Below, one piece after another: positions 3,112-51,243 of a DNA stretch of 64,000 bases. Both the position numbers and the translations under genes were made by a program. Below the pieces are notes generated by a model. The model ran no database searches. It worked only from the letters and a program-made list of their open reading frames with translations, and was not told the origin of the DNA. The stretch covers positions 694,028-758,027 of the forward strand of contig OY970175.1 of the NCBI GenBank assembly GCA_963707865.1, read 5' to 3'. The DNA is from an uncultured bacterium (GTDB taxonomy: Bacteria; Patescibacteriota; Minisyncoccia; UBA6257; 2-01-FULL-56-20). Within the stretch, counting starts at the first letter, position 1; each line of letters begins with the position of its first letter.

Positions 3112-3119
3112 GTTCTTAT

Positions 3120-4212: not shown

Positions 4213-4282
4213 CGTTCATACTATCATGATATTTTTCCCTTTATAAAACAAGGGATTGGGGCGGCAGGGCGCGCAAGAACGC

Positions 4283-5659
4283 CTATTGCCGCCCTCGCAC
4301 GATCGCGAGGAGAGTGTCCATGTAATTCCCGGCATTATGATATTTTACCCAATTAAGCATGCATGCGTGTGCGCGCTTTTTTGCATCTTCTGAATTTTCC
4401 AGGTAAGAGAGCATCGCCCTCCCAAGAGACCCTTCGTCATCCAAGCGGAATAATACTCCTCCGCTCTTGTATTTCACAAACTCGCGTTCCATCCACGTAC
4501 CCACCGGGATAATCACTGATTTGCCGAAAGCCAGCGCTTCGCCGAAAATTCCCGATGTCTGCGCATGATAGCTTTCCGCGGTATAGGGAATCACGACGGC
4601 ATCCGCCCGCAGCAAAAGCCCGTAATATTCTTTCGTGTCCAATACCCGACCAATGATTTCCACCCCGCCCCCCATGGCAAGCAACTCCCTTTTCGCCTGC
4701 ATGACCCGCTCCCTCGGATACTTCAGGCAATTGGACTGAATCAAAAACCTTATCTGCCGGGATTTCCTGTTCGCGGTTACAAAATCGATCGCCGCAGGAA
4801 GCAAATGATATCCCTTCCTCTCGGCCGCATGTCCGATGTAAACAAAGGTTTTCGCATTCGTCGGCGATGCCGGCGCCTTGCGAGGCAGAACGGGGGTGTT
4901 CGGCATGGGCAGGACATGAACCTTGCGCCGGGCCATGGTTCTATACTCTTCCTCCAAGACATCGCTGTCGGTCGTAAAAAAAATCTTTCCGCTGCCCGGC
5001 AACCGCTCCAAAAGCTTTATCAAAAATTTGTAGAAATAGTACGATGGCATAGGCTTTTTAGGATGGCCATACTGCATCGTGGCATACCGAAACAGCAGCA
5101 CCAGCCAGGGCCGCTCGGCCAGCGCGAATGAGCGATACCAGAGATACAGCGCGACGAGCGAGGTCTGGCTCAAGGTATGGACCAGCACGATGTCATCGCT
5201 TGCAAAAGGCCCCTTGCCGACTTTTTTTAAATCGCTCAAAAACGACCGGTTCCCCGCAATCGCATCGAGGGCTCCGTTCAAATGCAAGAACTTATTTGCC
5301 AATTGGGGGATGCGCACCGACGAATAATATTCGCGCGGATCAATGGAAAACGCAGGAACGATGTTGAACTTTGTTCTTACTGCTTCGTCGTCCACGGGCG
5401 TACAATAAATGCTCGCTTCGTTTCCCCGCCCAACCCATTCTTCATATACCGACCTGGTGTATTCAAAATGATGTCCCACCTTGCTCGCGAATCCGTTGTC
5501 GAGAATATGGAGTTTCATGCTAGTGTTCTTTTGAGGAAAGGCTTCCTTTTGCGATCGCGATGGCCATTTGAAGTCCCTGCTCCAGTGAAATCTTTGGCTG
5601 CCATCCAAGGCACTTGACCGATGGTTCACTGAAGGGCGGCGGACCTTCTTTATCGCCAA
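4283..5659 (-). CDS. Glycosyltransferase, GT4 family
   Basis: The likely start is MKLHILDNGF at 5518, abutting the upstream gene end. The C-terminal GT4 motifs are ...ESYHAQTSGIFGEALAFGKSVIIP... Confidence 0.75.
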   Translation of the reverse strand: MAIKKVRRPSVNHRSSALDGSQRFHWSRDFKWPSRSQKEAFPQKNTSMKLHILDNGFASKVGHHFEYTRSVYEEWVGRGNEASIYCTPVDDEAVRTKFNIVPAFSIDPREYYSSVRIPQLANKFLHLNGALDAIAGNRSFLSDLKKVGKGPFASDDIVLVHTLSQTSLVALYLWYRSFALAERPWLVLLFRYATMQYGHPKKPMPSYYFYKFLIKLLERLPGSGKIFFTTDSDVLEEEYRTMARRKVHVLPMPNTPVLPRKAPASPTNAKTFVYIGHAAERKGYHLLPAAIDFVTANRKSRQIRFLIQSNCLKYPRERVMQAKRELLAMGGGVEIIGRVLDTKEYYGLLLRADAVVIPYTAESYHAQTSGIFGEALAFGKSVIIPVGTWMEREFVKYKSGGVLFRLDDEGSLGRAMLSYLENSEDAKKRAHACMLNWVKYHNAGNYMDTLLAIVRGRQ

Positions 5660-6990: not shown

Positions 6991-7935
6991 CTAGGCATTC
7001 GCATATGGGCTCGTGATTTCTAAAGCCTGAACTGCCTTGATAAGCTCATCAATCCCTTCCTCTATCGAAATGGAAGTCCTGAAGCCGGTCTTATTCAGCT
7101 TGTCATACGATACCGCGTAATCTCTTTGATCAATGTCGTGGCCGATGTCCGCAAAGTGAAGATAATAATCTATTTTCTTCTTAAGGATGAGGCAAATATC
7201 CTCCTTGCTGTAATTCATGGAATCATCGCCGACGTTGTAAATTTCCCCTTTCATTGTCTCGTAATGCTCCATGGCGAAGAGAAACGCCCGCGCCATATCG
7301 CGCACGTGGATGAAAGTGCGCATGAAACTTTTCTCGTACACGATCAAGCTTTTATCCCTGACAGCGCGGTAAGTAAAATCGTTGGGCAAAAGATCCAATC
7401 GCATCCTCGGCGAAACCCCGAATGCGGTGGCGAACCGATAAATGACGAATTCCTTATTGCTTTTTATGGTGTCTTCAGCCTCCGCTTTTTGTTTGCCATA
7501 ATCACTCAGGGGATTTAAGGGGGAGGTCTCGGTGCAGAAATCCTGGATAATCTTTCCATACGTACTCCCGGTTGAAGCGAAGATGATTGGGGTGCGGCCG
7601 CCTAATATCTTCACCAAATTCATGGTGCCGTTCACGTTGATATCCCGGGAAAGTTCGGGGTTCTTGCGGCAAGCCGGAAATCCGACAATGGCAGCCAGAT
7701 GGATGACGGCGTCGGCACCGTCCACCGCTTTCGAGACATCTTCTTTGGAACGCACGTCTCCTTTTATAAAATCAAAATTCTTGTCGGCAAAAAACGGCAT
7801 CAGAACGTCGCCGCCGAAATGAAGGGCGTCCAAAACCCTGACGCGATACCCTTTTCCCAACAACGCCCCGACTAACGTCGTGCCCACATATCCGGCTCCG
7901 CCAGTGACCAAAACAGTTCTGAATCTTTTATCCAT
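6991..7935 (-). CDS. NAD-dependent epimerase/dehydratase (extended SDR)
   Basis: The N-terminus is VLVTGGAGYVGTTLVGALL (GxxGxxG). A YxxxK motif is present (SDYGKQKAEAE). 314 aa. Confidence 0.75.
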   Translation of the reverse strand: MDKRFRTVLVTGGAGYVGTTLVGALLGKGYRVRVLDALHFGGDVLMPFFADKNFDFIKGDVRSKEDVSKAVDGADAVIHLAAIVGFPACRKNPELSRDINVNGTMNLVKILGGRTPIIFASTGSTYGKIIQDFCTETSPLNPLSDYGKQKAEAEDTIKSNKEFVIYRFATAFGVSPRMRLDLLPNDFTYRAVRDKSLIVYEKSFMRTFIHVRDMARAFLFAMEHYETMKGEIYNVGDDSMNYSKEDICLILKKKIDYYLHFADIGHDIDQRDYAVSYDKLNKTGFRTSISIEEGIDELIKAVQALEITSPYANA

Positions 7936-11091: not shown

Positions 11092-11745
11092 CTATTTTGT
11101 CTGAACGCCCCTGGAAGAGGTTGCTTGCGATTGCGAGAGCATTGATCCGAGTGCTGCCTGTACGCTCGCGTCGCTCGGCCAATTGGAAAGGATCTTCTGC
11201 CCGATGGCGATCGCGTCAGTCGTATCTCCCGAGGCCCGGTAGAGGCCAAAAAGACCGTAGAGCGTCTGCGGGCGGTTGGGGCCAAGCGCAAGCCCTTCCA
11301 GATAATACTGCTTCGCGGCATTGAGGAACGAAGTGTCCTCCGTCCCCGCGAACGCCAATTCGTTCATGGCTCCTTCAAGATAGACGTCTTGCCCGAAACT
11401 CATTCCCTTGCCGCGCGCGATGATGGGGTCGTAGTAACTTTGCACAAAGCCGACGATGGCGGCCACCGTTGACGTGGAACCGACTCCGCGCTGCAAGAGC
11501 CCGAGGACGCTGTTCGCTGTGTTTCGCACGAGCTCTTCCTGGCCGATGGGCGAAGGATAATCAAGCGGCGCGGCGAGACGGCCCTCAAAATCCTGGAGCG
11601 AGGTGGGCGGCTGGGACTGGAAACTTCCCAGCGTATTGATAAAGAGCTCGGCCTTCCGGAGCGGCAGATACGAACCGTATGCGGCGACGGCGAGAATGAT
11701 GATCGCGAGCGCCGTAGCGATAGTTCCCTTGACAGTCCTATCCAT
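11092..11745 (-). CDS. Membrane-anchored hypothetical protein (TPR-like C-terminal region)
   Basis: The likely start is MDRTVKGTIATALAIIILAVAAYG (one TM helix). It is helical and repeat-rich. It lies immediately downstream of the O-antigen-ligase-like gene. Confidence 0.4.
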   Translation of the reverse strand: MDRTVKGTIATALAIIILAVAAYGSYLPLRKAELFINTLGSFQSQPPTSLQDFEGRLAAPLDYPSPIGQEELVRNTANSVLGLLQRGVGSTSTVAAIVGFVQSYYDPIIARGKGMSFGQDVYLEGAMNELAFAGTEDTSFLNAAKQYYLEGLALGPNRPQTLYGLFGLYRASGDTTDAIAIGQKILSNWPSDASVQAALGSMLSQSQATSSRGVQTK

Positions 11746-13222
11746 GGTGTTGGCGTTGACTATGATTCGCATGTTGCTCGGATCTTTCGTAAAAATAATA
11801 GTAGGCGAATCCCAAGAAGAGGAACAGGCAAAGGTACATCGGGAGCACATCAAAGATAGCGACGCCCTGCACCAAGTAGGCCACCGGCATTGCAAGGAGC
11901 AAACCGCGCTCCACGATCCCCGACGATGCCGCCCGAACGGCCTCGCCTTTCTTTGAAAAGAATTCCCACGCGAAGACGAAAAAGATGGAGAGGTAGCTCA
12001 AGAGCCCGAGCGCGCCGGTCTCCGCGAGATAATCAAAGAAAACGCTGTGCGCGCGGTCAAACCACGTTTCGCTGTTTTGGCCCGGCGTGAAGAAACGCGG
12101 ATCAAAATACTTGTCGTAGACCGCGGTGAAGTTCTCCGGACCCCATCCGAGAACCGGCCGCTCCAAGAACCCTTTCCACGCTTCGCCCCAGACCCAGAAC
12201 CGCGTCTGGGCAGTTGAATCAGAAAAGCTGATCTGCAAAAGCCGTCCACCGGGCAGAGTTTGCACTAAATTGGAGTTCCGCAACGAATAAACGGTCCCGG
12301 CGAACGCGATAAGAAGGATAAGTGCAATGAGCGACCATTTTCGGAAAGAACCGCGGCCGGCAAAGATGAAATACAGCACGAGGGCAAATAATCCCGCACC
12401 GAAGCCGAGCTCGGCACCGCGCGTCTGGCTCAAATAAAAGAAAATAAAGAGTATGAAGATAAGCGCCCCATAGCCAACATGGGACCACATTTTCATTGCA
12501 CCCGCTGCTTTCCTTCTAATCCAAAGGTATCCGGCATAGAACATAGAAAACATGAGATACGGCGCGACGTACGCGGGATTTCCGAGCGAACCCTGGAAAC
12601 GCCCGTCTATAAGCTTGTGCCACCACCCCGAGGGCGCACCCCCGCTCGTATAGGGCCCAATGAACCCGGAGAATAGAAAGTTTCCCCCAAGGCCGTAGAG
12701 GATCATAAGAACCGCCGCCGCAAGCGAAAATTTGAAAATATTTTTCCATTCTTTTTCGGTGCGCAGCAAAAGCACGAGGAGCAGGAAGAAGAGATAGTAG
12801 TGGATCATCTGGAAACCGCCTTCCCCACGCTCATAGTTGGCCCAAAACGCCGCATGCACGTCATACGCGAAGAGGCATGCAAGGAGGAACATAAACACGA
12901 ACGCGGAGACGGCGATCACGAGCGGTTTCTTAAATGCCGTCCGGAGATGCGTCATCAACTCGCCTTCCCGCATCTCAAATGCCCATGCTAAAATGAAGAA
13001 AATAAGCGCAAGCTCAATCGCAAACCTGAAAAAATAATCCTTCCCGCCGATGAAGGGAAAAAATATTGAATTCATCACGATGACGACCGCGAACACCGCG
13101 ACGTAGAGATACCATTTCGCGATGCGGCGGAGAGAAATGCCAAAAAGTTTCGCCACGATGCCGAGAATGGGCAATGCAACGATGACCGCGAGCGCTTCTG
13201 GGTGGTTAATGATGGTGTCCAT
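11738..13222 (-). CDS. O-antigen ligase-like (Wzy_C) polytopic membrane protein
   Basis: 494 aa with about 10 TM segments. A loop carries ...YLSQTRGAELGF... typical of the O-antigen ligase/Wzy_C family. Confidence 0.65.
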   Translation of the reverse strand: MDTIINHPEALAVIVALPILGIVAKLFGISLRRIAKWYLYVAVFAVVIVMNSIFFPFIGGKDYFFRFAIELALIFFILAWAFEMREGELMTHLRTAFKKPLVIAVSAFVFMFLLACLFAYDVHAAFWANYERGEGGFQMIHYYLFFLLLVLLLRTEKEWKNIFKFSLAAAVLMILYGLGGNFLFSGFIGPYTSGGAPSGWWHKLIDGRFQGSLGNPAYVAPYLMFSMFYAGYLWIRRKAAGAMKMWSHVGYGALIFILFIFFYLSQTRGAELGFGAGLFALVLYFIFAGRGSFRKWSLIALILLIAFAGTVYSLRNSNLVQTLPGGRLLQISFSDSTAQTRFWVWGEAWKGFLERPVLGWGPENFTAVYDKYFDPRFFTPGQNSETWFDRAHSVFFDYLAETGALGLLSYLSIFFVFAWEFFSKKGEAVRAASSGIVERGLLLAMPVAYLVQGVAIFDVLPMYLCLFLFLGFAYYYFYERSEQHANHSQRQHHG

Positions 13223-13230
13223 AACAACGG

Positions 13231-14727
13231 CTAACGGGCGTATTCCACGGCCCGTATTTCCCGGATGACGTTCACTTTGATCTCTCCTGGATATTGTAAC
13301 TCGGATTGTATCCGGTTCGCAATCTCCCGCGCAAGTTCAAGCGCACGGAAGTCATCTATCTTTTCGGGCACCACGAACACGCGGAGTTCGCGGCCTGCGG
13401 AGATAGCATAGGCCTGCTTCACGCCCTGAAACTCCGAGGCAATCTTCTCAAGGTCGGCGAGACGCTTCACGTAATTCTCAAGCGTCCCGCGCCGCGCGCC
13501 GGGCCGCGCCGCCGAGAGCACATCCGCCGCAGCTACGATGAACGCTTCCGGCCGCGCATAGGGATAATCATCGTGGTGGGATTGCATCGCCTCAATAACA
13601 CGCTCGTCAATGTTGTACTTTTTGAGGAGTTTCATGCCGAGGTCTACGTGTGTCCCCTCCACCTCCTGATCAATTGCTTTGCCAATGTCGTGGAGAAACG
13701 CCCCTTTCTTCGCAACCTCCGCATTCAACCCGAGCTCGCGGGCCATCATTTCCGAAATATACGCCATCTCAACAGAATGCGTGAGTACGTTCTGGCCGAA
13801 GCTTGCCCGGAAATGCAGCCGGCCAACCATCTGTAAAATCTCCTTCGGCATGTCAAAAATGCCGAGGTCTTGCGCTGCCGCCTCGCCGATCTCCTGCGTG
13901 CGCTTACCGAGCTCTGTTTTCGCCTCCTCCACTTTCTCCTCAATCTTTGCGGGCTGGATGCGGCCGTCTTTGATCAAGCGCTCCAGCGCAATCCGCGCCA
14001 CTTCGCGGCGATAGGGATCAAATGAAGAAATAATGATCGCCTCCGGTGCCTCGTCAATGATGAATTCCACCCCCGTTGCGCGCTCCAAAGCCCTGATATT
14101 CCTCCCCTCGCGGCCAATGATCTTTCCCTTCAGGTCATCGTCGCTCAAAGGTAACAGCGTGGTCGTAATCTCCGACACGTGCGAGCGCGCATAGCGCTGG
14201 AGCGCGGTCGTTATAACTTCCGCCGTTTTCTTCTCGATCTCGTCTTGCCCTTCGCGGTCCATCTTCTGAACAAGCTGCGCCAAGTCCTGCGCCCGGTTCT
14301 CCTTCACGCGGCGTATAATTTCCTCCTTCGCCTCCTCCGCGGAAAGTTTCCCGATCTTTTCCAACTGTGATTGGACCTCGGCTTCCCCCGTTTTTAATTT
14401 CTCTTCGCGGGTGCGGAGTTTCCCCTCTTCGGCGGAAAGCTCCTCCGATCGCTTCTCAAACGTTTCCTCTTTTTTGAGGAGGCGGCTCTCCAACGCATCA
14501 ATTTCCTTCCTGTGCTCCTTTTCCTCGCTTTTGATATCAACCAAAAGCGAGGCGGCCTTGTCCTTTGCCTCTACGACAATCTCTTTCGCTTTGGCTTCCG
14601 CCTCAGCAAGATCCTTTTTTATTTTTTCTTCTACGTTCCCGAGCCGACTAGCCGCCCAATACCGACGGACGAAGTACCCTACTGCAATGCCAAAAACCGC
14701 CGCAACGAGCGGTATAAGTGCGTTCAT
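13231..14727 (-). CDS. rny: Ribonuclease Y
   Basis: N-terminal TM helix, then a long coiled-coil, then a KH domain (IIGREGRNIRALE) and an HD domain (LHDIGKA...). Confidence 0.9.
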   Translation of the reverse strand: MNALIPLVAAVFGIAVGYFVRRYWAASRLGNVEEKIKKDLAEAEAKAKEIVVEAKDKAASLLVDIKSEEKEHRKEIDALESRLLKKEETFEKRSEELSAEEGKLRTREEKLKTGEAEVQSQLEKIGKLSAEEAKEEIIRRVKENRAQDLAQLVQKMDREGQDEIEKKTAEVITTALQRYARSHVSEITTTLLPLSDDDLKGKIIGREGRNIRALERATGVEFIIDEAPEAIIISSFDPYRREVARIALERLIKDGRIQPAKIEEKVEEAKTELGKRTQEIGEAAAQDLGIFDMPKEILQMVGRLHFRASFGQNVLTHSVEMAYISEMMARELGLNAEVAKKGAFLHDIGKAIDQEVEGTHVDLGMKLLKKYNIDERVIEAMQSHHDDYPYARPEAFIVAAADVLSAARPGARRGTLENYVKRLADLEKIASEFQGVKQAYAISAGRELRVFVVPEKIDDFRALELAREIANRIQSELQYPGEIKVNVIREIRAVEYAR

Positions 14728-14803
14728 AGTTAATGTTATTGAAGTATTTCATTTTAGGGACTTTTAATTATTACTATAATACAATACCGCGCCAGGCAAA
14801 TAC

Positions 14804-14833
14804 TTGTCAATTAAATTCTGCCTTTGCTATAAT
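14804..14833 (+). promoter_or_regulatory. Candidate sigma70-like promoter in the rny/gpmI divergent intergenic region
   Basis: TTGTCA (14804-09), 18-nt spacer, TATAAT (14828-33). The intergenic region is AT-rich. Confidence 0.3.
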
Positions 14834-14957
14834 GGCAGTACAGCTGGTGGGAAGGGTTCCAGTCGCGCGCTGGACTGGCATAAAAGATCCGGAAACGGGT
14901 CTTTTGTGTTTTCGCACAGCGTTCGCGCGACCGCGCGCGCGCGGTTATAATAGAACC

Positions 14958-16493
14958 ATGGCAAAGAAAACAACCGTCCTCATTGTCCTTGACGGCTGGG
15001 GCATCGGCCACAACAGCGAATCAAATCCGATCTATGTCGTGAAGCCGCCGGTGTTTGAATGGCTAAGAAACAATTATCCAATGACGAGCTTGCAAGCGTC
15101 GGGGATCGCGATCGGACTCCCCTGGGGCGAGGTCGGCAACAGCGAGGTTGGGCATCTCACGCTCGGCGCCGGCAAAGTCCTTTATCAGTATTATCCGAAG
15201 ATTATGATGGCCATCCGGGACGGGACCTTTTTCCAAAATCCGGTGCTCAAGGCGGCCTGCGCTCACGCACGGGAGCATAATGCCGCGATAAATTTCCTTG
15301 GGCTTCTCACGAAAGCCAACGTGCATGCTGCACTTGATCATTTGAAGGCGCTCATCAAAATGGCTCAGGCGGAACAGGTACCGAAGATCAATCTGCATCT
15401 CTTTGCCGACGGGAAGGACAGCCCGCTGCACACTGTGGAAAGTTTCCTCGGCGAACTGCCGCGCGAATATCTTGCTTCCCTCATCGGCCGATACTACGCC
15501 ATGGACCGGAACGGAACCTGGCAGCTCACGGAAACCGCCTATGACACCGTGACGGGCCAAGCGGGGAGGGTGGTGGATGATCCCGCGCCCATCATTAAGG
15601 CTACCTACCAAGAAAGCGGCACGGAGGAATATCTCCCGCCGATGCGCTTTGGAGAAGACAAGAAAATTCAGGATGGCGACGCCGTCATTTTCTTCAATTA
15701 CCGCGAGGATAGCATCCGGCAGCTCGCGTCGTCATTCATATTGAAAGATTTTGACAAATTCCCGACGCTCAAGTTCCAAAATCTATACGTTGCAACGATG
15801 AGCCACTATGATGACACATTCAACGTCCCCGTCATCTACCCCGCCGACATTGTGGAAAATCCCATCGGAAAAGTGATCTCCGACCTAGGCATGGTCCAGC
15901 TTCGTCTTGCCGAAACTTATAAATATGCGCACGTTACCTATTTCTTCAACGGCCTCCGCGAGCCGCCGTTCAAAGGAGAATACCGCACGCTCATCCCTTC
16001 AAACTCCAGCCTCCACCCCGAGGAACATCCGGAAATGATGGCGGGGGCGGTCACCGACCGGCTCCTTGAGGCGATTCAAAACAAAACGTTTGACTTTATC
16101 CTCGTCAATTACGCCAATCCCGACACCATCGGCCACACCGCCGATTACAACGCGGCCCTGGAAGCCGTGCGGGTTATTGACCGAGAAATCGGCCGCATCC
16201 TCAAGGTCGCGATAAACCCAGACACCATCCTCGCTATCACAAGCGATCACGGCCACATTGAGGAAATGATCAGTCCCGTGACAGGGCTTCCCGAGAGCCA
16301 GCATGCATCAAGTCCCGTGCCGCTTCATTTTGTCGCAGACCAATACCGAGGCAGAAAATTCATCAACGCTGATATACTTGAAGCCGAAACGCTCGGCTCT
16401 CTCGCCGACGTCGCCCCCACCCTCCTTGAAGCAATGGGCATAGAAAAACCAGCCGAGATGACCGGCCGCAGCCTGCTGGACCAGATCGCATAG
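14958..16493 (+). CDS. gpmI: 2,3-bisphosphoglycerate-independent phosphoglycerate mutase
   Basis: Starts MAKKTTVLIVLDGWGIGHNSESNP. The family motifs are conserved throughout. The ORF track's upstream extension from 14733 is not supported. Confidence 0.9.
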   Translation: MAKKTTVLIVLDGWGIGHNSESNPIYVVKPPVFEWLRNNYPMTSLQASGIAIGLPWGEVGNSEVGHLTLGAGKVLYQYYPKIMMAIRDGTFFQNPVLKAACAHAREHNAAINFLGLLTKANVHAALDHLKALIKMAQAEQVPKINLHLFADGKDSPLHTVESFLGELPREYLASLIGRYYAMDRNGTWQLTETAYDTVTGQAGRVVDDPAPIIKATYQESGTEEYLPPMRFGEDKKIQDGDAVIFFNYREDSIRQLASSFILKDFDKFPTLKFQNLYVATMSHYDDTFNVPVIYPADIVENPIGKVISDLGMVQLRLAETYKYAHVTYFFNGLREPPFKGEYRTLIPSNSSLHPEEHPEMMAGAVTDRLLEAIQNKTFDFILVNYANPDTIGHTADYNAALEAVRVIDREIGRILKVAINPDTILAITSDHGHIEEMISPVTGLPESQHASSPVPLHFVADQYRGRKFINADILEAETLGSLADVAPTLLEAMGIEKPAEMTGRSLLDQIA

Positions 16494-21431: not shown

Positions 21432-21515
21432 GCCGAGGTGATGGAAATGGCAGACATGTAGCGTTCAGGGCGCTATGGCCGCAAGGCCGTGAGGGTTCAA
21501 ATCCCTCCCTCGGCA
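21432..21515 (+). tRNA. tRNA-Leu (anticodon CAG), class II with long variable arm
   Basis: Hand-folded. Acceptor gccgagg / cctcggc (7 bp). D-arm with GG. Anticodon stem tagcg / cgcta with loop ttCAGgg. Variable arm ggcc-gcaa-ggcc. T-arm gaggg-ttcaaat-ccctc. Discriminator A. No encoded CCA. Confidence 0.85.
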
Positions 21516-21644
21516 CAAAATAAAAGCATGATGAAAAAAATTGAGGAGAAAGAACGGCCGCGAATAAAGCCGCCCGAGATACGGCCGCACACAACCACGC
21601 CCGGACAGAGGCCAGCTTTGGTTGCACTGAGGTCGCCGCACGCA

Positions 21645-35152: not shown

Positions 35153-35466
35153 GGTGGAGACGGGCGGAATCGAACCGCCGTGTAAAGGTAATGCGCGTGG
35201 GCCGTCTACGAGCGTGTCTAGTGGAACACTAGCAACGTGATCCTAATTTTCGCGCGTGGCATAGGATCGTCCGCCGCGGCTAGTCCCCTTATATAAGACC
35301 GGCTATGAGCCCAAGGAACCCGGGCTCGCCGATCCCGGCATTACGCGTAAGCGAACGCCGGAGCTGTAACTCTATTAGAGTTGGCAGTTATGTTTGTGCA
35401 GCAGTTACGTCGCTGCCCTCGGCCCGCAAACCCACTGCTTACCTTTATCAAAGCCAGTGCGTCCCC
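35153..35466 (-). ncRNA. ssrA: tmRNA (ssrA), ~314 nt
   Basis: Hand-derived. 5' GGGGACG pairs with 3' CGUCUCCACC, giving the G3:U70 alanine identity pair. T-arm GGCGG-UUCGAUU-CCGCC. Ends ...CUCCACC with the terminal A not encoded. A candidate tag reading frame is GCC AAC UCU AAU AGA GUU ACA GCU CCG GCG UUC GCU UAC GCG UAA (ANSNRVTAPAFAYA). A candidate promoter is TTCACA-17-TATAAT at 35484-35512 on minus. Confidence 0.75.
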
Positions 35467-43460: not shown

Positions 43461-43747
43461 CCCGTGGATCGGCCGGGAATTGCACCCGGACCTTCGCCTG
43501 TCAATGACGATATTCTGCTGTTAAACTACCGACCCCCGATCACGGGGTGCGTTCACCATACACGAATAGCCATTAAAATTATTTAAAATATTAATCGCCA
43601 CTGTGAGGTGGCGACTAATACGACAGGCGAAGATTGGTCGGCAATTCATGCAGACCATCGTCTTATCTTCACTATAGCGACCCAAGAAGAAATGTCAAAA
43701 ATCATTTAATAATTTTTTAATCAATGGAAGTACGCTATGCTTAATGA

Positions 43748-44343: not shown

Positions 44344-44388
44344 GAGCGGCAAGAAAAAATTCTCGCAGGAAGAATTTTATTCTGGCTC
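44344..44388. repeat. 45-nt conserved hairpin motif, copy 1 (second copy at 59563-59607)
   Basis: gagcggcaagaaaaaattCTcgcaggaAGaattttattctggctc versus copy 2 ...ttGCcgctggaGCaatt... The two differences are compensatory, which preserves the stem. Confidence 0.6.
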
Positions 44389-44413
44389 TTCAAAAGGATA
44401 TTTGCTTCTTGCT

Positions 44414-44698
44414 GTGTGCTTATATGAGACTGCTCGAGAGTATTTTATCCAAAATTCCTGAATTTTGATACCCCTCTTACCCCTTCAAATACCCCTTCAA
44501 TTGCCCTGCATCGAATTGAAGGGGTAGCAAGTCCAGTTTGCTCTGCAAACTCTGATCTTTTCGACCCTCGTCTCTGAAAATCACAAGTCCTACTTCACTC
44601 CGCTAGACCCCCTCCGAAATGGTGTGCTCAGCCCCTCAGCCGCTCACTTACGTTCGGGCTTCGGGGCTTCGCGTATGGCGCGCCCAAATTCCTCCCCC
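44414..44698. repeat. 285-bp perfect inverted repeat, left copy (IR-L)
   Basis: Checked by hand. The reverse complement of 44414-44698 equals 47876-48160 base for base across all segments compared. Confidence 0.9.
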
Positions 44699-44958
44699 AA
44701 CCCCTCCTTTGAGGCGCGCTAAGAGGTGGTAGTTCCACGCTTTGCGACCCTATTCCTGTCCATAGGGCAATACCACGTCTTAGCGTGTCTGACCCTCCAG
44801 AAAGCGGTTTCTTGCCCTTGCCCCAGCCCTCCCATTGCGCGGGCAAGAGTCATTAAAACTCCCTTAAAAGAAGCTTGTCCTTTCAGCTTTGAATAGCGAT
44901 AATTTTGGGATGAAAATTATCAAAAAATCGAGTATGATTACCTTAAATCTTACTCGCC

Positions 44959-45768
44959 ATGAAACAATCAGCCACAACAAGGAAATTATCGCTCCCTCCG
45001 ACCAAGCGGGCCCCGAAAGCCCCAAAATTTTCCAAGAAATTTGTGAATAAAATCCTTTGCGGCGATGCCATCGAGCTTATGCGAGAGATACCCGACGGCG
45101 CGGTTGATCTCGTTGTAACTTCGCCGCCATATAACCTTAAAAATTCCACCGGCAACGGAATGAAGGATGGGCGCGGTGGGAAGTGGGCCAATGCCGCCCT
45201 GCAAAACGGATACAGCAATCACGACGACTGTATGCCGCACGACAAATATGTGAAGTGGCAGAGAGATTGCCTAAAGGAGATGATGCGAATTATCCCGGAG
45301 GATGGCGCGATTTTCTATAACCATAAATGGCGCGTTCAGGGAGGTTTGCTACAAGATCGGCAGGATATTGTCGGCGGATTCCCGGTTAGGCAGATCATCA
45401 TTTGGAAACGGAAGGGCGGCTTAAATTTTAACGCCGGATATTTCTTGCCGACTTATGAAGTCATTTATCTTATCGCCAAACCGAAATTCAAACTAGCGAC
45501 GAAAGCGAACGCGCACGGCGATGTTTGGGAGTTTACGCAGGAGATGAATAACGAACATCCGGCCGCTTTTCCCGTAGCTCTAATTGATCGGATAGTTTCC
45601 GCAACGGACGCTAAAACTATTCTCGACCCTTTCATGGGTTCGGGCACGACGGCACTTTCTGCGATAAATTTTAAGCGAGATTATATCGGCATTGATATTT
45701 CGCCAGAGTATTGCGAGATGGCCGAAAAGAGAATTAAGAAACATAAAGCTCAATCGCGGCTCTTATAA
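44959..45768 (+). CDS. Type II DNA methyltransferase, beta-class amino-MTase (SPPY; likely N4-cytosine, M.MvaI/M.BcnI-like)
   Basis: Motif IV DLVVTSPPYNL precedes motif I ILDPFMGSGTT (beta permutation, N6_N4_Mtase). It is immediately upstream of the REase candidate. Confidence 0.8.
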   Translation: MKQSATTRKLSLPPTKRAPKAPKFSKKFVNKILCGDAIELMREIPDGAVDLVVTSPPYNLKNSTGNGMKDGRGGKWANAALQNGYSNHDDCMPHDKYVKWQRDCLKEMMRIIPEDGAIFYNHKWRVQGGLLQDRQDIVGGFPVRQIIIWKRKGGLNFNAGYFLPTYEVIYLIAKPKFKLATKANAHGDVWEFTQEMNNEHPAAFPVALIDRIVSATDAKTILDPFMGSGTTALSAINFKRDYIGIDISPEYCEMAEKRIKKHKAQSRLL

Positions 45769-45770
45769 TC

Positions 45771-46568
45771 ATGGCAAAGAAACCCGTTATTTATACAAAA
45801 CCATCGTTGATAGCGAAGCTCAAAGAAATCGCCGCGATGGGTTGGATACCGAATGCCCGACGAGGCAACGCCGGAGGCGTAGGTAATACGCTTGAAGACC
45901 TGCTTGGCATAAGAGAAAATAACTTGCCGATTCCCAACGCCGCAGAGTGGGAACTGAAAGCGCAGAGAATAAATACCACGTCGCTCACAACTTTATTCCA
46001 TATCGAGCCATCGCCCCGCGCCATCGGTTTTGTGCCAAAAGTTTTGTTGCCATTGTACGGATGGCCCCACGAAGAAGCAGGGAAGAAATACGGAAAAAAC
46101 GAGATGAGTTTTCGCCAAACGATTCACGGCGGATCGCGGAGCGACAGAGGTTTTAAGGTTGTGATAGATCGCAAAGAGAAAAAGATTTTAATCTCGTTCG
46201 ACGCGAAAAGTGTTGATCCAAGACATAAGACCTGGCTCGAATTAGTTAAAAAGCGCGTGGGCTTAGGCGAACTTAATCCCCAACCATATTGGGGATTCGA
46301 TGATTTAGAACATAAAGCCGGAACGAAATTGCTTAACGCTTTTTACGTTCAGGCGGAGGTGAAGATAGAGCGCAAGAAGGAATTTTATAAATATACGAAA
46401 GTGATGATGCTACAAAAATTTAGTTTCGACGGATTTTTGAAAGCGTTGGAGGAGGGTAAGATACTCGTTGATTTCGATGCTCGCACAGGCCACAATCACG
46501 GAACGAAATTTAGAATGAGGCAGGATTGCTTGCCGATGCTTTACGAGAAAAACACCATCATTTTATGA
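45771..46568 (+). CDS. Type II restriction endonuclease, MvaI/BcnI-like (recalled family similarity)
   Basis: Starts 3 nt after the MTase stop. The pattern GGVGNTLEDLLGIRENN...EWELKAQR...LTTLFHIEP matches my recollection of the MvaI/BcnI family N-terminal region. Those enzymes pair with N4mC SPPY MTases. This is not database-verified. Confidence 0.5.
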   Translation: MAKKPVIYTKPSLIAKLKEIAAMGWIPNARRGNAGGVGNTLEDLLGIRENNLPIPNAAEWELKAQRINTTSLTTLFHIEPSPRAIGFVPKVLLPLYGWPHEEAGKKYGKNEMSFRQTIHGGSRSDRGFKVVIDRKEKKILISFDAKSVDPRHKTWLELVKKRVGLGELNPQPYWGFDDLEHKAGTKLLNAFYVQAEVKIERKKEFYKYTKVMMLQKFSFDGFLKALEEGKILVDFDARTGHNHGTKFRMRQDCLPMLYEKNTIIL

Positions 46569-47833
46569 AAACTAGGCTAGAGGCGAAAAAGGCTAGTTGG
46601 CTAAATAAGTACAAAGGAGATATCGAGCTAGAGCCTTTCTTTCAGAGAGGAACAGTTTGGAGCGATGATAAAAAACAGTATTTTATAGACTCGCTTTTAA
46701 AGGGCTGGGGAACGCCAAAAATTTTCCTTTGGGAAACGGGTAAAGATTCTTATGCCTGTTTAGATGGCAAACAGCGTTTGACCAGTCTATTTAAATTTAT
46801 GGCCGACAGACTGCCATTAAAAGAAGATTATTCTACTGGATATGGCGGTAAAAAATATACCGAGTTACCAGTTAGCGTCCAAGATGCGATCGACGATTAT
46901 GAATTTTCGGTAGAAATATTAGAAGCCAAAGACGACGAAGTGATAGAACTCTATAAGAGGTTACAAGGGGGCACTCCTTTAAATTTCGGAGAGAAGTTAT
47001 TTGCGATGTCGGGAAATATGAACGATTTTATTAAACGCCGGCTAAACACAAAAACATTCTTTAAGGAAAGAGTATCGCTTCCAGATACTAGATACTCGCA
47101 CTATGCTGTTTGCGCGCAATTATGCTTATTGAGCATAAAAGGCGCAAAAGAAGACTTGAAGCTAAAGAACCTAGAGAAGTTTTTTAGAGATTATCGCGGC
47201 TTCAATACCAAGAGCCCTGAAGCAGATAAAATTTTCGACGTTATAAAACATCTTGAAAAGGCGTTCCCTAACAAGAGCGATCCGGCCCTACGAAATAGGG
47301 CGAATGTCGTATCTATATTTCATCTAATAGCAGATATATCTGCGCGTGGCGATATTTCCGGGAGAGAAGAAGAAATAGGTGCGTTCTTTAGAAAATTTGT
47401 GAAGGATATTCAGAAAGAGTTTGATAAAAAGCCCGAGAACCGCGATCCCGCCATATTGAGTTATCAATCGGCGGTTACGCAAGGAGCAGACAAAATTAAG
47501 TCTATTAATATCAGGCACGGCGTTTTATTAAAAAAACTTGAGTCGAAAAATAAATTTTTCTATGGCCTTCTTCATCCAGCTTCTCCGCAGGACAAATTTA
47601 TGAAAATGTATAACGACGCACGAAAGAAGCTAAGGATCACCACTGTTGGTGGATTTGATGCGTGGCTTATTAGTAATAAAGGCCTGTCAGATATAGGGTG
47701 CTCGAAAGCTCGTGCTGGAACGGAAACTTTTATAGGACATATTCGCAATTGTATCCATTATTCTGAACATGGAACTGTTCCAGTAAAGGACTTAGATAGG
47801 GCCATCAAAATTTTGAAAGAGATATTAAGGTAA
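46565..47833 (+). CDS. DUF262-domain protein (GmrSD / ParB-like nuclease family; candidate type IV restriction or defence nuclease)
   Basis: ATG overlaps the REase stop (ATGA). The N-terminal DUF262 hallmark is ...YACLDGKQRLTSLFKF... (the DGQQR motif). The C-terminal region is compatible with a DUF1524/His-Me-like domain. Confidence 0.65.
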   Translation: MKTRLEAKKASWLNKYKGDIELEPFFQRGTVWSDDKKQYFIDSLLKGWGTPKIFLWETGKDSYACLDGKQRLTSLFKFMADRLPLKEDYSTGYGGKKYTELPVSVQDAIDDYEFSVEILEAKDDEVIELYKRLQGGTPLNFGEKLFAMSGNMNDFIKRRLNTKTFFKERVSLPDTRYSHYAVCAQLCLLSIKGAKEDLKLKNLEKFFRDYRGFNTKSPEADKIFDVIKHLEKAFPNKSDPALRNRANVVSIFHLIADISARGDISGREEEIGAFFRKFVKDIQKEFDKKPENRDPAILSYQSAVTQGADKIKSINIRHGVLLKKLESKNKFFYGLLHPASPQDKFMKMYNDARKKLRITTVGGFDAWLISNKGLSDIGCSKARAGTETFIGHIRNCIHYSEHGTVPVKDLDRAIKILKEILR

Positions 47834-47875
47834 AAATTTTTGCTCCCGGCCATGCGGCCGCGAGCTATTTTTTGT

Positions 47876-48160
47876 GGGGGAGGAATTTGGGCGCGCCATA
47901 CGCGAAGCCCCGAAGCCCGAACGTAAGTGAGCGGCTGAGGGGCTGAGCACACCATTTCGGAGGGGGTCTAGCGGAGTGAAGTAGGACTTGTGATTTTCAG
48001 AGACGAGGGTCGAAAAGATCAGAGTTTGCAGAGCAAACTGGACTTGCTACCCCTTCAATTCGATGCAGGGCAATTGAAGGGGTATTTGAAGGGGTAAGAG
48101 GGGTATCAAAATTCAGGAATTTTGGATAAAATACTCTCGAGCAGTCTCATATAAGCACAC
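47876..48160. repeat. 285-bp perfect inverted repeat, right copy (IR-R)
   Basis: Reverse complement of IR-L (44414-44698). The two copies flank the MTase-REase-DUF262 cassette. Confidence 0.9.
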
Positions 48161-48328
48161 CAAGATAAGATTTTCCTCAACTCTACCAATTTTTTCGCGC
48201 GCCGCGCGGAGCGCGGCATAATGCGGCACGGGGGTAAATTCGATTTCTCTATTCCTCAGAGATACGTTCGAGCCGAAAATTTTTTGTACGGATGTCTTTT
48301 TGAGGGAGAGGGTGGGGGTAAGAGAGAT
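48158..48328. repeat. 171-bp inverted duplicate of the tRNA-Arg 3' tip plus the recombinase 3' end
   Basis: The reverse complement of 51003-51173 equals 48158-48328 (checked by hand). The copy begins with CACCA, which is the tRNA-Arg 3' end. It overlaps the outer end of IR-R by 3 nt. Confidence 0.85.
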
Positions 48329-48333
48329 AGCTA

Positions 48334-49416
48334 TTAAAGCTCCTCGGATTTTTTAAGACGAAGGCGAGCCAGTTCTCTAAGGTCAAATTCTTTCTCCGAG
48401 CCTCTTATCCGGCCGCCGATTAATCCAAGATTGTAGGTTATTTCCTCGCTCGTGTTGCGCCAGTTAGTATCCTCAAGCGTTTTGTCGATTAACTTTTTGA
48501 CCTCAATGGGTGCCTTTTCCTTATCGCGTCCGGTTAAGGTGTCTTGAGCGGTGTATGGGAGCATCACCGATCCCCTGAATATTTCCGGCTTGCCGAATAC
48601 CAATTCCGTAAGCCCGTTCTGTTGAAAAACAGGAGTGAGTAGCCCCTGAACTTGGGCGACGCCTAGCACTTTTATCTTCTTGACCGCCTCGTCGATTGCG
48701 ATGTTCTCCGTTGAAAATTCATTTATATAATCCTTGCCGCCTATTTCCCAATTCTCCCTACTGTGATAGTGGCCTGAAACGTATTCTTTGCCTTCTTTCT
48801 CGGTCATGCAGAATATTTCCCTGTCTTTGAGAAAATTTTTATCAACCTTTGGCTTCTTCAGTTTTTCGTCTAGGTCGAGTATGTCATCCTCGTGATGGCC
48901 GCAACTTCCGCAAGTATATGAATCAATGAGCTTGTTTCCTTCGCGGCTGGATTTTTTCTCAAGCGTTGCCTTACACTTTGGGCACGATCGCGGTTCCGGT
49001 CGGTATTCTTCGCCGTCTTGGAAAAATTTGCGTACTTCGCGGCAGTTTTCGCATTTGAAATAGAAAAGGACTCGCTCCTTTTTGCCGTAGCCTTCCATAG
49101 TTTTCTCCACCATATCCATGTCGGAGCGGCATACGAGGCATAGCGCATTGAATTTTGGCCGAGCCTTTTCCAGTTTCTGATTGTATTCTCCAATAGCTTT
49201 TCTGCGATCCCTGATAGCCTCAAATTTATTCGCATACCGCTCGCCGCGCATGAAGTAGAGCGAGACCTTTCCGAACAGAACCCACATCGGGTCATTTTTA
49301 TTCTCCTTGATAGTCTTATCCATTCTCGCCACAAATTTGCGGCACTCCTCGACTGTTTCGCGGTCGTATTCGTCGCTATAAGCGGTGTCGTTCTTATCCG
49401 TTTCTTCGAGGTTCAT
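48334..49416 (-). CDS. Hypothetical protein with two tandem CxxC...CxxC zinc ribbons (function unknown)
   Basis: CLVCRS..(22)..CENCRE and CPKCKA..(20)..CGSCGH, then a ~190-aa C-terminal domain with no recognised family. Co-oriented with the XRE gene directly upstream. Confidence 0.45.
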   Translation of the reverse strand: MNLEETDKNDTAYSDEYDRETVEECRKFVARMDKTIKENKNDPMWVLFGKVSLYFMRGERYANKFEAIRDRRKAIGEYNQKLEKARPKFNALCLVCRSDMDMVEKTMEGYGKKERVLFYFKCENCREVRKFFQDGEEYRPEPRSCPKCKATLEKKSSREGNKLIDSYTCGSCGHHEDDILDLDEKLKKPKVDKNFLKDREIFCMTEKEGKEYVSGHYHSRENWEIGGKDYINEFSTENIAIDEAVKKIKVLGVAQVQGLLTPVFQQNGLTELVFGKPEIFRGSVMLPYTAQDTLTGRDKEKAPIEVKKLIDKTLEDTNWRNTSEEITYNLGLIGGRIRGSEKEFDLRELARLRLKKSEEL

Positions 49417-49422
49417 CTTCGA

Positions 49423-49626
49423 TTACTTGAGCAGGTTATTAACGGAAACGCCTAGAGCCTTAGCAATCTTCTCGACGTTTTTAAGAGAAATATTCCATAT
49501 GCCGCGCTCGATCTGGCTAATATAGGTCGGGTGGACGTTCAAAAGCTTGGCGAGGTCGCCCTGCGACATCCCCTTGTCGAGGCGGAGCCGCTTCATTCTC
49601 TTACCGAATTTGATAGATATATCCAT
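49423..49626 (-). CDS. XRE-family helix-turn-helix transcriptional regulator
   Basis: ...KRLRLDKGMSQGDLAKLLNVHPTYISQIERG... is the classic Cro/CI-type HTH. 67 aa. Confidence 0.8.
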   Translation of the reverse strand: MDISIKFGKRMKRLRLDKGMSQGDLAKLLNVHPTYISQIERGIWNISLKNVEKIAKALGVSVNNLLK

Positions 49627-49706
49627 GCCTATAAGTGCTCTTGTAAATATGGTAACAGGTGCGTTACTATTGTTCTATATAGAGGTAGGCCTCTATAATA
49701 AAAGAT

Positions 49707-51182
49707 ATGCCAAATTATTTTCTCTACGTCAGAAAATCGACCGACGTTGAAGATAAGCAAGTCCGCTCCATCGAAGATCAGCTTGCCGTTCTGCGTACTC
49801 TAGCTAGCACCGAGAAACTTCATATCATTGAGGAGTTTGTCGAGAAGCAGTCCGCGAAAGTGCCCGGCCGGCCAGTTTTTGACGAGATGCTCCGCCGCAT
49901 CGAAAAGGGCGAAGCCTCCGGCATCGTCTGTTGGAAGTTAGATCGTCTCGCTCGCAATCCGGTGGACGGAGGGCAGATAAGTTGGTTCTTGCAGAGGGGC
50001 ATCATCCAGCATATCCAGACTTATGAAAAGAGCTATCGTCCCGCGGATAACGTCATTATGATGAGCGTCGAGTTCGGGATGGCGAACCAGTATATTTTAG
50101 ATTTGAGCGCGAACACCAAACGCGGCCTGATGGAGAAGGTGAAAAGAGGCGAATATCCGTCGCTCGCCCCGATCGGATATATCAACGATCCGCGAAGCAA
50201 AACGGTAATCCTTGATCAGAAAAAGGCTAGCATCATTCGCGGCGCGTTTGAACTCTACGCCGAGGGCAATTCCCGTCTTGGGGACGTATCTGTGTTTTTC
50301 GCAAAGCAAAATTTCTTCTCCAAAATCGGCAACACCTATCATCGGGACAGGATCACCCGTATTCTCTCCAATCCTTTCTATTGCGGCTTTTTCCGCTATG
50401 CCGGAGAGATACACGAAGGCAACCACGAGCCGATCGTTTCAAAGCAACTGTTCGATAAGGTGCAGGATATCCTAAAGAAGAAAGGGCGGCCGCATCACAA
50501 GCAGAAGAACGACCCTCGCCCGTTTTGCGGCCTGTTCCGGTGCGGCGAGTGCGGAATGATGGTAACGGCCGAAGTCCAAAGAAAGCACGCCTATTATCGG
50601 TGCACGAAGAAGTCCTCCATACGCTGTTCCCAGCCCTATATTAGAGAGGAGGTTTTGGATAAACAGCTATCGGATATTCTCAAAAATTTTGCCATGCCCT
50701 CGGCATGGGCGGAGAATTTATCGCACAGAGCGGACAAAGATAGCGAGGAGACCACCCGTTCCGTGGCGGCTTTTGTTCAAGAGTTGCGGTCTCAAATATC
50801 GGACATCAACCGCAAGCTCGAGCGGCTTCTTGAGACGTATTTAGAGCAAGATATCGAACGGGACGTGTACCGAGAGGAGAAGGCAAAACTCCTCTCGTCC
50901 AAGAAGTCGCTTACGGAGCAAATCGCCCGTCTTGAACAAAAGCAAAACGCATGGCTCGAACACTTCCGAGACTGGCTGAAAGACGCACAGAATCTGAACG
51001 AAATCTCTCTTACCCCCACCCTCTCCCTCAAAAAGACATCCGTACAAAAAATTTTCGGCTCGAACGTATCTCTGAGGAATAGAGAAATCGAATTTACCCC
51101 CGTGCCGCATTATGCCGCGCTCCGCGCGGCGCGCGAAAAAATTGGTAGAGTTGAGGAAAATCTTATCTTGGTGCCCTCGTGA
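49707..51182 (+). CDS. Large serine recombinase (integrase/transposase type)
   Basis: N-terminal resolvase catalytic domain (YVRKSTDVEDKQVRSIEDQ..., WKLDRLARN), then the recombinase domain, a zinc ribbon (CGLFRCGECG...YYRC) and a coiled-coil. The last 14 nt of the ORF overlap the tRNA-Arg 3' end. Confidence 0.85.
   Translation: MPNYFLYVRKSTDVEDKQVRSIEDQLAVLRTLASTEKLHIIEEFVEKQSAKVPGRPVFDEMLRRIEKGEASGIVCWKLDRLARNPVDGGQISWFLQRGIIQHIQTYEKSYRPADNVIMMSVEFGMANQYILDLSANTKRGLMEKVKRGEYPSLAPIGYINDPRSKTVILDQKKASIIRGAFELYAEGNSRLGDVSVFFAKQNFFSKIGNTYHRDRITRILSNPFYCGFFRYAGEIHEGNHEPIVSKQLFDKVQDILKKKGRPHHKQKNDPRPFCGLFRCGECGMMVTAEVQRKHAYYRCTKKSSIRCSQPYIREEVLDKQLSDILKNFAMPSAWAENLSHRADKDSEETTRSVAAFVQELRSQISDINRKLERLLETYLEQDIERDVYREEKAKLLSSKKSLTEQIARLEQKQNAWLEHFRDWLKDAQNLNEISLTPTLSLKKTSVQKIFGSNVSLRNREIEFTPVPHYAALRAAREKIGRVEENLILVPS
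51003..51173. repeat. 171-bp repeat, right copy (recombinase 3' end through tRNA-Arg CACCA tip)
   Basis: Inverted partner of 48158-48328. Confidence 0.85.
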
Positions 51183-51243
51183 GGAATTGAACCTCAATCT
51201 TCTCCTTCGGAGGGAGACGTCCTATCCGTTGAACTACGAGGGC
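51169..51243 (-). tRNA. tRNA-Arg (anticodon CCG), CCA encoded
   Basis: Minus-strand read GCCCTCGTAGTTCAACGGATAGGACGTCTCCCTCCGAAGGAGAAGATTGAGGTTCAATTCCTCACGAGGGCACCA. Acceptor 7 bp, anticodon loop CUCCGAA, T-arm TGAGG-TTCAATT-CCTCA. Confidence 0.8.

Follow-up and report, generated by a model that had tools for sequence, protein, structure and literature searches.

Large serine integrases (Listeria A118/LI, SPbeta SprA, phiC31, Bxb1) are built of resolvase, recombinase and zinc-ribbon domains, and act on simple sites that share a very short core and whose P and P' halves are imperfect mirror images. In attB of the LI integrase, the zinc-ribbon motif is 5 bp closer to the centre than it is in attP, and only the attP x attB pairing recombines (PMC3783163). 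Islands of tyrosine integrases insert at the 3' end of tRNA genes, rebuild the tRNA, carry defence cargo and leave direct repeats of 15-50 nt. SCC elements are small cargo islands at the 3' end of rlmH, a conserved gene, with terminal direct repeats and no internal inverted site; their recombinases, CcrAB and CcrC, run the reaction both ways and are not known to need a separate directionality factor. The genes of Myxococcus phage Mx8 intP and of SSV1-type archaeal integrases span their own attP, so that integration alters the end of the integrase gene; these integrases are of the tyrosine type and have only one attP, of which there is no inverted copy. Serine-invertase switches (Hin, Gin, Cin, Pin; for example PinQ) have inverted repeats with the crossover site and encode the recombinase at the segment; the enzymes are small, the sites measure 26-34 bp and come with an enhancer, and both orientations are common. 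Finally, the yeast 2-micron plasmid is a circle of two unique segments between long inverted repeats that hold the target (FRT) of its recombinase, Flp, a tyrosine recombinase; flipping of the segments amplifies copy number.

In this report, we describe an island in a 64,000-nucleotide stretch of DNA (the window) that shares features with each of these systems. Our main conclusion is that it is probably the integrated form of an element of one large serine recombinase, with attL, attR and a spare attP in inverted orientation, and that two inverted attP regions were most likely present before integration. The likeness to serine integrases extends to the domains, the simple sites with a very short shared core and mirrored P/P' arms, and a zinc-ribbon motif placed further out in attP (4 nt here); unlike them, it targets the 3' tip of many different tRNA genes, has its attP inside the enzyme's own gene, with arms conserved over 110-290 nt, and retains a second, inverted attP after integration. 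As in tyrosine-integrase islands, a tRNA 3' end is rebuilt and the cargo is defensive, but the shared stretch here is only 3-5 nt, and the long repeats run in inverted orientation. The resemblance to SCC is in the small cargo island and in the best NCBIfam match, CcrB, whose 108 bits lie far under the equivalog cut-off of 900, so that the protein is not a Ccr enzyme. In contrast to the invertase switches, the protein is large and of integrase type, the repeats consist of att arms and a single orientation prevails. The predicted excised form would have the architecture of the 2-micron plasmid; no replication genes were seen. Serine-integrase elements are a known kind, and the layout with a spare inverted attP appears to be new among them, as our full-text literature searches returned no description of this architecture.

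Mobile elements of candidate-phyla-radiation bacteria are poorly known; the island would stand for a large family of defence islands, mobile and so far undescribed, in these bacteria. Its relatives also supply over 60 natural sets of attP, attB, attL and attR from a clade of serine integrases that recognises the universal tRNA T-loop. Such sets are of use in studies of site selection and in the choice of integrases as genome-engineering tools. The retained inverted attP poses a bench-testable question on the control of directionality.

The island measures 6757 bp (44417-51173) and lies in the 3' tip of a tRNA-Arg(CCG) gene. Its GC content is 0.39-0.52, against 0.52-0.59 in the flanks. From left to right it consists of attL (44414), restriction-modification cargo, an inverted attP, the recombinase module and attR (51173), with the following features:

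44374-44413, plus strand: host flank adjoining attL, the putative B half-site of the original attB, which would have been the region downstream of tRNA-Arg before insertion
44414-44416, no strand: core GTG at attL, the 3 nt common to both repeat pairs
44414-44699, plus strand: arm A, the P' arm of attL, 286 nt, an exact inverted copy of 47875-48160
44959-45768, plus strand: N4/N6 DNA methyltransferase, cargo (Pfam PF01555, E 6e-40; PADLOC MTase_II, E 1e-121)
45771-46568, plus strand: MvaI/BcnI-type restriction endonuclease, cargo (Pfam PF15515, E 6e-66; PADLOC REase_II)
46526-47833, plus strand: GmrSD_N / NsnA-like defence protein, cargo (Pfam PF03235, E 3e-16; PADLOC NsnA, E 6e-27)
47875-48328, minus strand: intact internal attP region, inverted, 454 nt (exact identity; core CAC at 48158-48160)
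48158-48328, minus strand: left arm of the 171-nt repeat; it copies recombinase codons 433-489 and forms the P arm of the internal attP
48334-49416, minus strand: ORF360, a zinc-ribbon protein, variable passenger of the recombinase module
49423-49626, minus strand: HTH_3 protein, similar to restriction-modification control (C) proteins (PF01381, E 2e-17; PADLOC Control_protein, E 1.4e-22)
49676-49698, no strand: palindrome TATATAGAGGTAGGCCTCTATAA between the divergent HTH_3 and recombinase genes, read from the sequence; a candidate operator
49707-51182, plus strand: large serine recombinase, 491 aa; its ORF runs through the core and stops 9 nt into the tRNA gene
51003-51173, plus strand: right arm of the 171-nt repeat, contained entirely in the recombinase ORF and representing the P arm of attR; core GTG at 51171-51173
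51169-51243, minus strand: tRNA-Arg(CCG), the B' half of attB (ARAGORN; the Rfam tRNA model ends at 51172)

The first-pass annotation had reported an exact inverted duplication, 48158-48328 against 51003-51173, and had placed the recombinase 3' end and the CACCA of tRNA-Arg in its right copy. Both statements hold: the arms are 171 nt long, 100% complementary and 2674 nt apart, with no additional matching base at either end, and the right one covers codons 433-489 of 491 and CACCA at 51169-51173. A perfect repeat of this length in 64 kb makes a chance origin impossible. The left copy indeed adjoins the sequence previously called IR-R, which forms the right-hand copy in another perfect inverted repeat, 286 nt long (44414-44699 / 47875-48160); the two repeats overlap there by 3 nt (48158-48160, CAC). 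Together, 47875-48328 (454 nt) is the exact reverse complement of 51003-51173 plus 44417-44699. The first pass missed that this left copy amounts to just the P arm of an entire inverted attP, the second arm of which recurs at attL.

Judging by three Pfam domains typical of the class, the 491-aa protein is a large serine recombinase. The resolvase catalytic domain (PF00239, E 2.7e-19, residues 5-149), with an N-terminal YVRKST motif, is followed by PF07508 (Recombinase, E 4.6e-14) and then PF13408 (Zn_ribbon_recom, E 3.2e-10). Residues 177-332 align with the C-terminal domain of the A118 integrase in the PDB (E 5e-10), and SPbeta SprA was also matched; identity to any annotated phage or plasmid enzyme is at most 31%. 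Residues ~335-430, considered for the coiled-coil motif that large serine recombinases have within the zinc-ribbon domain, are charged and, judged by eye, seem helical. The serine-invertase class was rejected, as the length of 491 aa and the integrase-type C-terminal domains differ from a small invertase with a C-terminal HTH. A tyrosine-integrase tRNA island was likewise rejected: no tyrosine integrase occurs among the island ORFs scanned, and only GTG is shared in direct orientation, with no long direct repeat, in keeping with the earlier view that this is not the direct att duplication of such an enzyme. Nor is the island a terminal-inverted-repeat transposon, since its flanks (...CTTGCT / CCCTCG...) carry no duplication and the five island ORFs scanned gave no match to a transposase family. 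We found no recombination directionality factor, and the recombinase module has no conserved candidate; ORF360 was ruled out as a conserved accessory factor, its homologue being absent from the matching segment of 106 relatives. The HTH_3 gene is divergent from the recombinase gene, and a small divergent ORF occupies the same position in 44 relatives.

The repeat contains the P arm and the shared core GTG, which agrees with the earlier suggestion that it duplicates the crossover region. A palindromic core (GC) without polarity was ruled out, as the junctions have only GTG in common, and the P and P' arms are imperfect mirror images of each other. The core shared between attL, attP and attR is 3-5 nt long in 9 loci; the three-site layout recurs at different tRNAs in L011, L023, L024, L053, L055, L141, L144 and L147, and the cores in these loci and in the window are GTG, GCT, GAG, GCTC, TGCTC and TGGTG. 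When 44417-51173 is removed in silico, ARAGORN still calls tRNA-Arg(CCG); the rebuilt site consists of ...TTGCTTCTTGCT, then GTG, joined to 51174 onward, and the empty site before insertion would read ...TTGCTTCTTGCTGTGCCCTCGTGAGG.... The C-terminal tail of the recombinase is ...LILVPS in the attR form versus ...LILVCLYETAREYFIQNS in the attP form. The latter tail also ends the 503-aa protein obtained when 48329-51002 is inverted in silico, so that in this window a flip does restore an intact recombinase (491 aa at present), as had been proposed. An exact search of metagenome contigs for the host flank plus core gave 0 matches, no terminal direct overlaps indicative of circular contigs occur among 160 loci (four short contigs with inverted ends are recombinase modules broken at their arms), and look-ups of three host proteins and the recombinase, meant to reveal other strains of the host, found nothing on record. 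With no circle, no empty site and host proteins absent from the look-up collection, we only infer excision and the two-attP form.

The spacing of half-site motifs sets attP apart from attB. In the window, the P' half-site motif TCGAGA (44434-44439) lies 18 nt beyond the core, and the T-loop motif TTGAAC of tRNA-Arg (51187-51192) lies 14 nt beyond it. Across the family, measured from the repeat boundary, TCGAAC starts at 14 nt on the tRNA side and at 18 nt beside the left arm, the difference being exactly 4 nt in 59 of 60 loci. This shift is the attP-versus-attB spacing known for serine integrases.

Relatives were collected in two scans (136 and 440), and the detailed set comprises 160 related loci from Patescibacteria; none was found among viral contigs. 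The tRNA 3' tip adjoins the recombinase gene in ~109 of the 160 loci (109 of the 124 with readable sequence after the gene), and 106 of the 160 carry a repeat over the 3' end of that gene, with a median of 158 nt. Most repeat-bearing contigs (57/84) stop at most 300 nt outside the left arm, as expected from the second repeat located there. Arms are homogenised within loci; in some loci they are just 84-93% alike. Relatives with recombinase genes 85-91% identical have almost nothing in common in either module except the arms. In L073 and L077, attP flanks the recombinase module on both sides, and assembler confusion is unlikely there because the arms are 84-90% alike. In L094 a native, syntenic tRNA pair lies on the left arm, which indicates that the 'spare' attP copy was used in that locus.

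The first-pass annotation had attributed the duplicate to an inversion or to recombination between inverted sites. Site-specific inversion is conservative and duplicates nothing. Since serine recombination is conservative, two inverted attP regions must already have been there before integration; moreover, the partner arm of the left copy lies at attL, so that the duplication predates integration and belongs to the design of the element. The mobile form, most likely with two inverted attP regions, would be a circle of ~6.76 kb in which two 454-bp repeats divide the recombinase module from the defence-cargo module. The attP copy that is read through by the recombinase gene would have paired with the tRNA tip, its half-site beyond the core imitating the T-loop motif at attP spacing. 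Strand exchange inside GTG would then split this copy into attL and attR, and the other copy would remain whole inside the island. The two copies may be held alike through gene conversion. Module inversion across them could occur and would be harmless in this window, but the repeat did not originate in this way, and relatives rarely show it.

What the data establish in this account is the anatomy, the core common to the sites, the spacing of the motifs and the conservation across the family. Our preferred guess is that the spare attP serves as a second docking site and that the conserved arms double as handles for cargo swapping. A bolder version, which we consider possible but doubtful, is a two-ended element in which each inverted attP docks independently at a tRNA tip: the integrated copy would stay permanently armed without a directionality factor, and it could enter a new host via its spare site together with the old tRNA junction (as L094 suggests), invert chromosome segments between tRNA genes, and swap defence cassettes in the manner of recombinase-mediated cassette exchange. 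Counting against the two-attP model, equivalent attP copies predict that both integration isomers are common; instead, both sides are resolved in the orientation of the window in 74 contigs and in the full mirror form in 0. Moreover, a spare attP has no attB partner once integrated, pairing of attP with attL or attR does not occur in known serine integrases, and the arms are 110-290 nt long against the ~50-bp attP of studied enzymes.

Other explanations were weighed against the two-attP reading. Assembly error, by which a wrongly resolved collapsed repeat would have produced the left copy or a false segment order, is hardly credible. The perfect repeats of 171 and 286 nt do exceed short reads, and several related contigs break at the arms; however, the independent Logan assembly of run ERR10755942 contains contigs identical to window positions 48299-50094 and 44820-47890, which span the unique-to-repeat junctions 48328/48329 and 47874/47875. 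In addition, more than 100 loci share the layout, some with arms different enough to be resolved, and it is present in a chromosome-level MAG assembly (L011, OY970354.1). These junction contigs, and a repeat found in 106 of 160 loci from many studies and assemblers, argue that the layout is real. We also judge it unlikely that the locus is an invertible switch, in which the recombinase or RecA flips 48329-51002 and coexisting orientations express the recombinase, or ORF360 and the HTH gene, differently. The perfect arms, the recombinase that stays intact after inversion and the homogenisation of arms within loci, which implies exchange between them, are in its favour, as is the present convergence of the recombinase gene on the tRNA gene, by which the recombinase gene might be silenced. 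L041 and L162, 99.99% identical over 7.2 kb, differ in the arm joined to the tRNA flank (left arm in L041, gene 3' end in L162), and L071 and L075 likewise join the tRNA to the left arm. With L094 this makes four such contigs, but three of them end inside the right arm, and these mirror-like contigs may be mis-joins. The count of 74 to 0 speaks against frequent switching, as does an insertion of 6-12 nt in 53 of 78 left arms, which splits the copied codons, so that left arms are not faithful gene ends. A switch, moreover, cannot create the duplication, and leaves the 286-nt repeat and the P' half-site beside the left arm unexplained. The enzyme belongs to the large serine recombinases rather than to the small invertases that come with an enhancer, and known members of its class do not join attP to attR.

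Less probable still are two adjoining cassettes, one for restriction-modification with 286-bp and one for the recombinase with 171-bp terminal inverted repeats, each mobile, the first possibly in trans. In favour of this, both segments end exactly at inverted repeats of their own, they have been exchanged independently among relatives, and L061 has additional A-cargo-A' units distant from any P arm. Yet the outer ends of both repeat pairs meet in a single 3-nt core that is also the tRNA and host-flank junction, P and P' mirror each other imperfectly as in attP, target-site duplication and a transposase gene are both lacking, and serine recombinases invert, rather than excise, a segment between inverted sites.

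The two-attP model leaves the conserved asymmetry of the arms unexplained, together with a covarying hairpin in the right arm (51114-51130). A known RNA family in the arms was ruled out, as Rfam matched nothing there besides tRNAs, arm A included; the arm A region has a strong RNA fold (z -4.2).

The inverted repeat reported in the first-pass annotation is exact: 48158-48328 is the perfect reverse complement of 51003-51173 over 171 nt, with 2674 nt between the arms and further extension at neither end. The right arm covers, as also proposed there, the end of the recombinase gene and the tip of a tRNA gene:

49707-51182: recombinase ORF, 491 aa, which holds the right arm
51169-51243, minus strand: tRNA-Arg(CCG), whose CACCA end forms the last 5 nt of the right arm

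A scan of the wider region revealed a second perfect inverted repeat, of 286 nt (44414-44699 and 47875-48160), whose right arm shares 3 nt with the left arm of the 171-nt repeat. A scripted check established that the 454 nt at 47875-48328 are the reverse complement of 51003-51173 plus 44417-44699; a single unit therefore exists in two copies, an intact, inverted one in the middle of the island and one that is split at GTG. The halves of the split copy have 6.76 kb between them, the right one adjoining the tRNA body and the left one adjoining host sequence 3' of an unrelated gene's terminator. The GC content of the island is 0.39-0.52, compared to 0.52-0.59 in the flanks, and after in silico deletion of 44417-51173 tRNA-Arg(CCG) is still called by ARAGORN. 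The window also contains tmRNA (35153-35466, tag ANSNRVTAPAFAYA), tRNA-Leu(CAG) (21432-21516) and tRNA-Ser(TGA) (43464-43535) genes, none of which bears an island at its tip.

Protein searches identified 160 related loci, 80 in species-representative genomes and 80 in metagenomes; a few occur in both collections, and almost all are labeled Patescibacteria. An opposite-strand tRNA 3' tip follows the recombinase gene in 109 of the 124 loci with readable sequence (window counted), the target being Arg, Asn, Gln, Val, Leu, Tyr, Ile, Ala, Glu, Gly, Lys or Phe, depending on the locus. An inverted repeat over the 3' end of the gene, hereafter the P arm, is present in 106/160 relatives (median 158 nt); it invariably ends 3-7 nt into the tRNA, and its partner arm precedes the gene by 0.1-8 kb. 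Nine loci, at different tRNAs, have the full three-site layout, and the core that the sites share is 3-5 nt long. In 57 of 84 contigs, the assembly breaks beyond the left arm, within 300 nt of it, as expected if the second repeat is present there too. In the literature that we searched, a three-site layout with an internal inverted attP is nowhere described.

The identity of the sites is indicated by the spacing of a short motif. Outside the left arm, almost all loci have a conserved sequence of type CTaTAcGAccAagTCGAACCTATTTT, in which TCGAAC begins 18 nt from the repeat boundary. At the other arm, the distance from the boundary to this motif in the tRNA T-loop is 14 nt; the difference is exactly 4 nt in 59/60 loci. 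In the Listeria integrase system, the motif bound by the zinc ribbon is 5 bp closer to the center in attB than in attP, and only attP x attB recombines, other pairings being inactive (PMC3783163). By this precedent, the left arm and its flank form an attP, the right arm and the tRNA form an attR, and 44414 is an attL. The island thus has three sites with a shared core and attP- and attB-type spacing, in a conserved layout. The 491-aa protein has the domain set of large serine recombinases (Resolvase, Recombinase, Zn_ribbon_recom) and aligns to the solved structures of the A118 integrase C-terminal domain and SPbeta SprA; it scores far under the cut-offs for both CcrB and XisF, and is at most 31% identical to enzymes of the phage and plasmid collections. 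Two relatives with 91% identical recombinase genes, L016 and L019, reside at tRNA-Gln and tRNA-Asn, respectively, which suggests that the recombinase recognizes the common T-loop rather than one tRNA. The end of the P arm is altered in these two loci to fit each tRNA tip. In seven other loci (L040, L062, L111, L133, L138, L140 and L153), a sequence resembling the 3' half of tRNA-Asn (CGGGTAGGATTCGAACCTACGACCAAC) lies directly 3' of the recombinase gene; ARAGORN calls no tRNA there, and the tRNA genes of these loci may be interrupted by introns.

Strand exchange by serine recombinases is conservative. Neither inversion nor integration can therefore have created the duplicate, which contradicts the earlier proposal that inversion, or recombination between inverted sites, had left it; two inverted attP regions must already have been part of the element when it entered tRNA-Arg. 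The mobile form would be a circle of about 6.76 kb carrying two 454-bp inverted repeats, and integration would have used the attP copy that is read through by the recombinase gene, the two copies presumably being kept alike by gene conversion. No excised circle was found among the 160 related loci checked for circular contigs, no empty site by exact search of metagenome contigs, and no other strains of the host by look-ups of host proteins.

The two arms of a locus are 84-100% alike, with a perfect match in 16 loci, whereas arms of representatives from different loci are less than 80% alike; the two copies thus evolve in concert. One difference recurs: in 53/78 loci, the left arm is interrupted about 115 nt from the core by a conserved T-rich insertion (6-12 nt), located exactly at the TCTTCGG / CTCGAACC junction (codons IFG|SN). 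A right-arm insertion is present in one locus only, and the window has none. Such left-arm insertions (for example, L017 3405-3573 and L022 8030-8188) abolish a TCGAAC motif. The P arm also carries a GC-rich hairpin, GCCGCGC-TCC-GCGCGGC (51114-51130 and 48201-48217 in the window), within the recombinase coding sequence. Its pairing is kept through double changes, at two pairs, in 10 of 30 sequences from relatives, so that selection seems to act on a DNA or RNA structure. The arm of the 286-nt repeat, or P' arm, is non-coding and, over 44414-44720 (copy at 47875-48160), has unusually strong predicted RNA folding (+ strand, z -4.2); it matched no Rfam family. The homologous region in relatives has GC-rich hairpins and a GAATGGGCGGCGGGGCGAGGGTTTTT-like element at its end.

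The window's orientation is predominant among relatives: 74 contigs are resolved on both sides as P' joined to P arm, module, gene, and P arm joined to tRNA, versus none in the full mirror form. A more sensitive test detected a tRNA on the left arm in four contigs. Three of these (L041, L071 and L075) may be mis-joins, because they terminate within the right arm. L041 (1-7210) and L162 (2828-10037) have a common 7.2-kb chromosomal flank, 99.99% identical; in L041 this flank meets the left arm, and in L162, as usual, the recombinase gene 3' end, so that one must assume an inversion polymorphism or else a mis-join via a 143-nt perfect repeat. In the fourth, L094, the arms differ by about 10%. 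Its left arm bears a tRNA-Val(tac)/tRNA-Arg(tct) pair (4037-4352) syntenic with related locus L100, and a second, inverted tRNA-Val/tRNA-Arg pair, 80% identical to the first, lies 3' of the gene (7290-7602); the latter may be a junction brought from a former host, or the product of a second integration. In two further loci, L073 and L077, an attP is present on either side, and the arms are 84-90% alike. Together with the mirror-like contigs and L094, they indicate that either module end can bear P' or tRNA. As the first-pass annotation had anticipated, the recombinase is intact in either orientation: in silico flipping of 48329-51002 yields an enzyme of 503 aa whose 14-residue tail is different. 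Inversion, if it occurs, would therefore be tolerated in the window.

We favor, with low confidence, the view that the spare attP is a second docking site and that the conserved arms also act as handles for cargo exchange. Left of the intact attP copy, the window carries genes for a methyltransferase, an endonuclease of MvaI/BcnI type and a GmrSD/NsnA-like protein. In the same position, L022, L030 and L052 encode Type ISP/Eco57I-like enzymes, SNF2 and PLD helicases, Shedu and Type III restriction genes. Among relatives with 85-91% identical recombinase genes, either module has nearly nothing in common, the arms excepted. The window's three-gene restriction/defense cassette is bracketed by the 286-nt perfect inverted repeat. 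L061 has additional cargo cassettes (2248-5552 and 11490-15444) bordered by inverted P'-type arms; one is distant from any P arm, and 32-nt palindromes separate paired cores. L053, an island at tRNA-Gln, has a tRNA-Arg(tct) gene (2244-2316) within its cargo.

Between internal attP and attR, the recombinase module comprises ORF360, a small HTH protein and the recombinase. The HTH protein (49423-49626) resembles restriction-modification control proteins (E 1.4e-22). The ORF after its gene (48334-49416; 360 aa, zinc-ribbon, no family) is a candidate for a controlled nuclease or other defense gene. A palindrome, TATATAGAGGTAGGCCTCTATAA, at 49676-49698, amid the divergent HTH and recombinase genes, looks like an operator.
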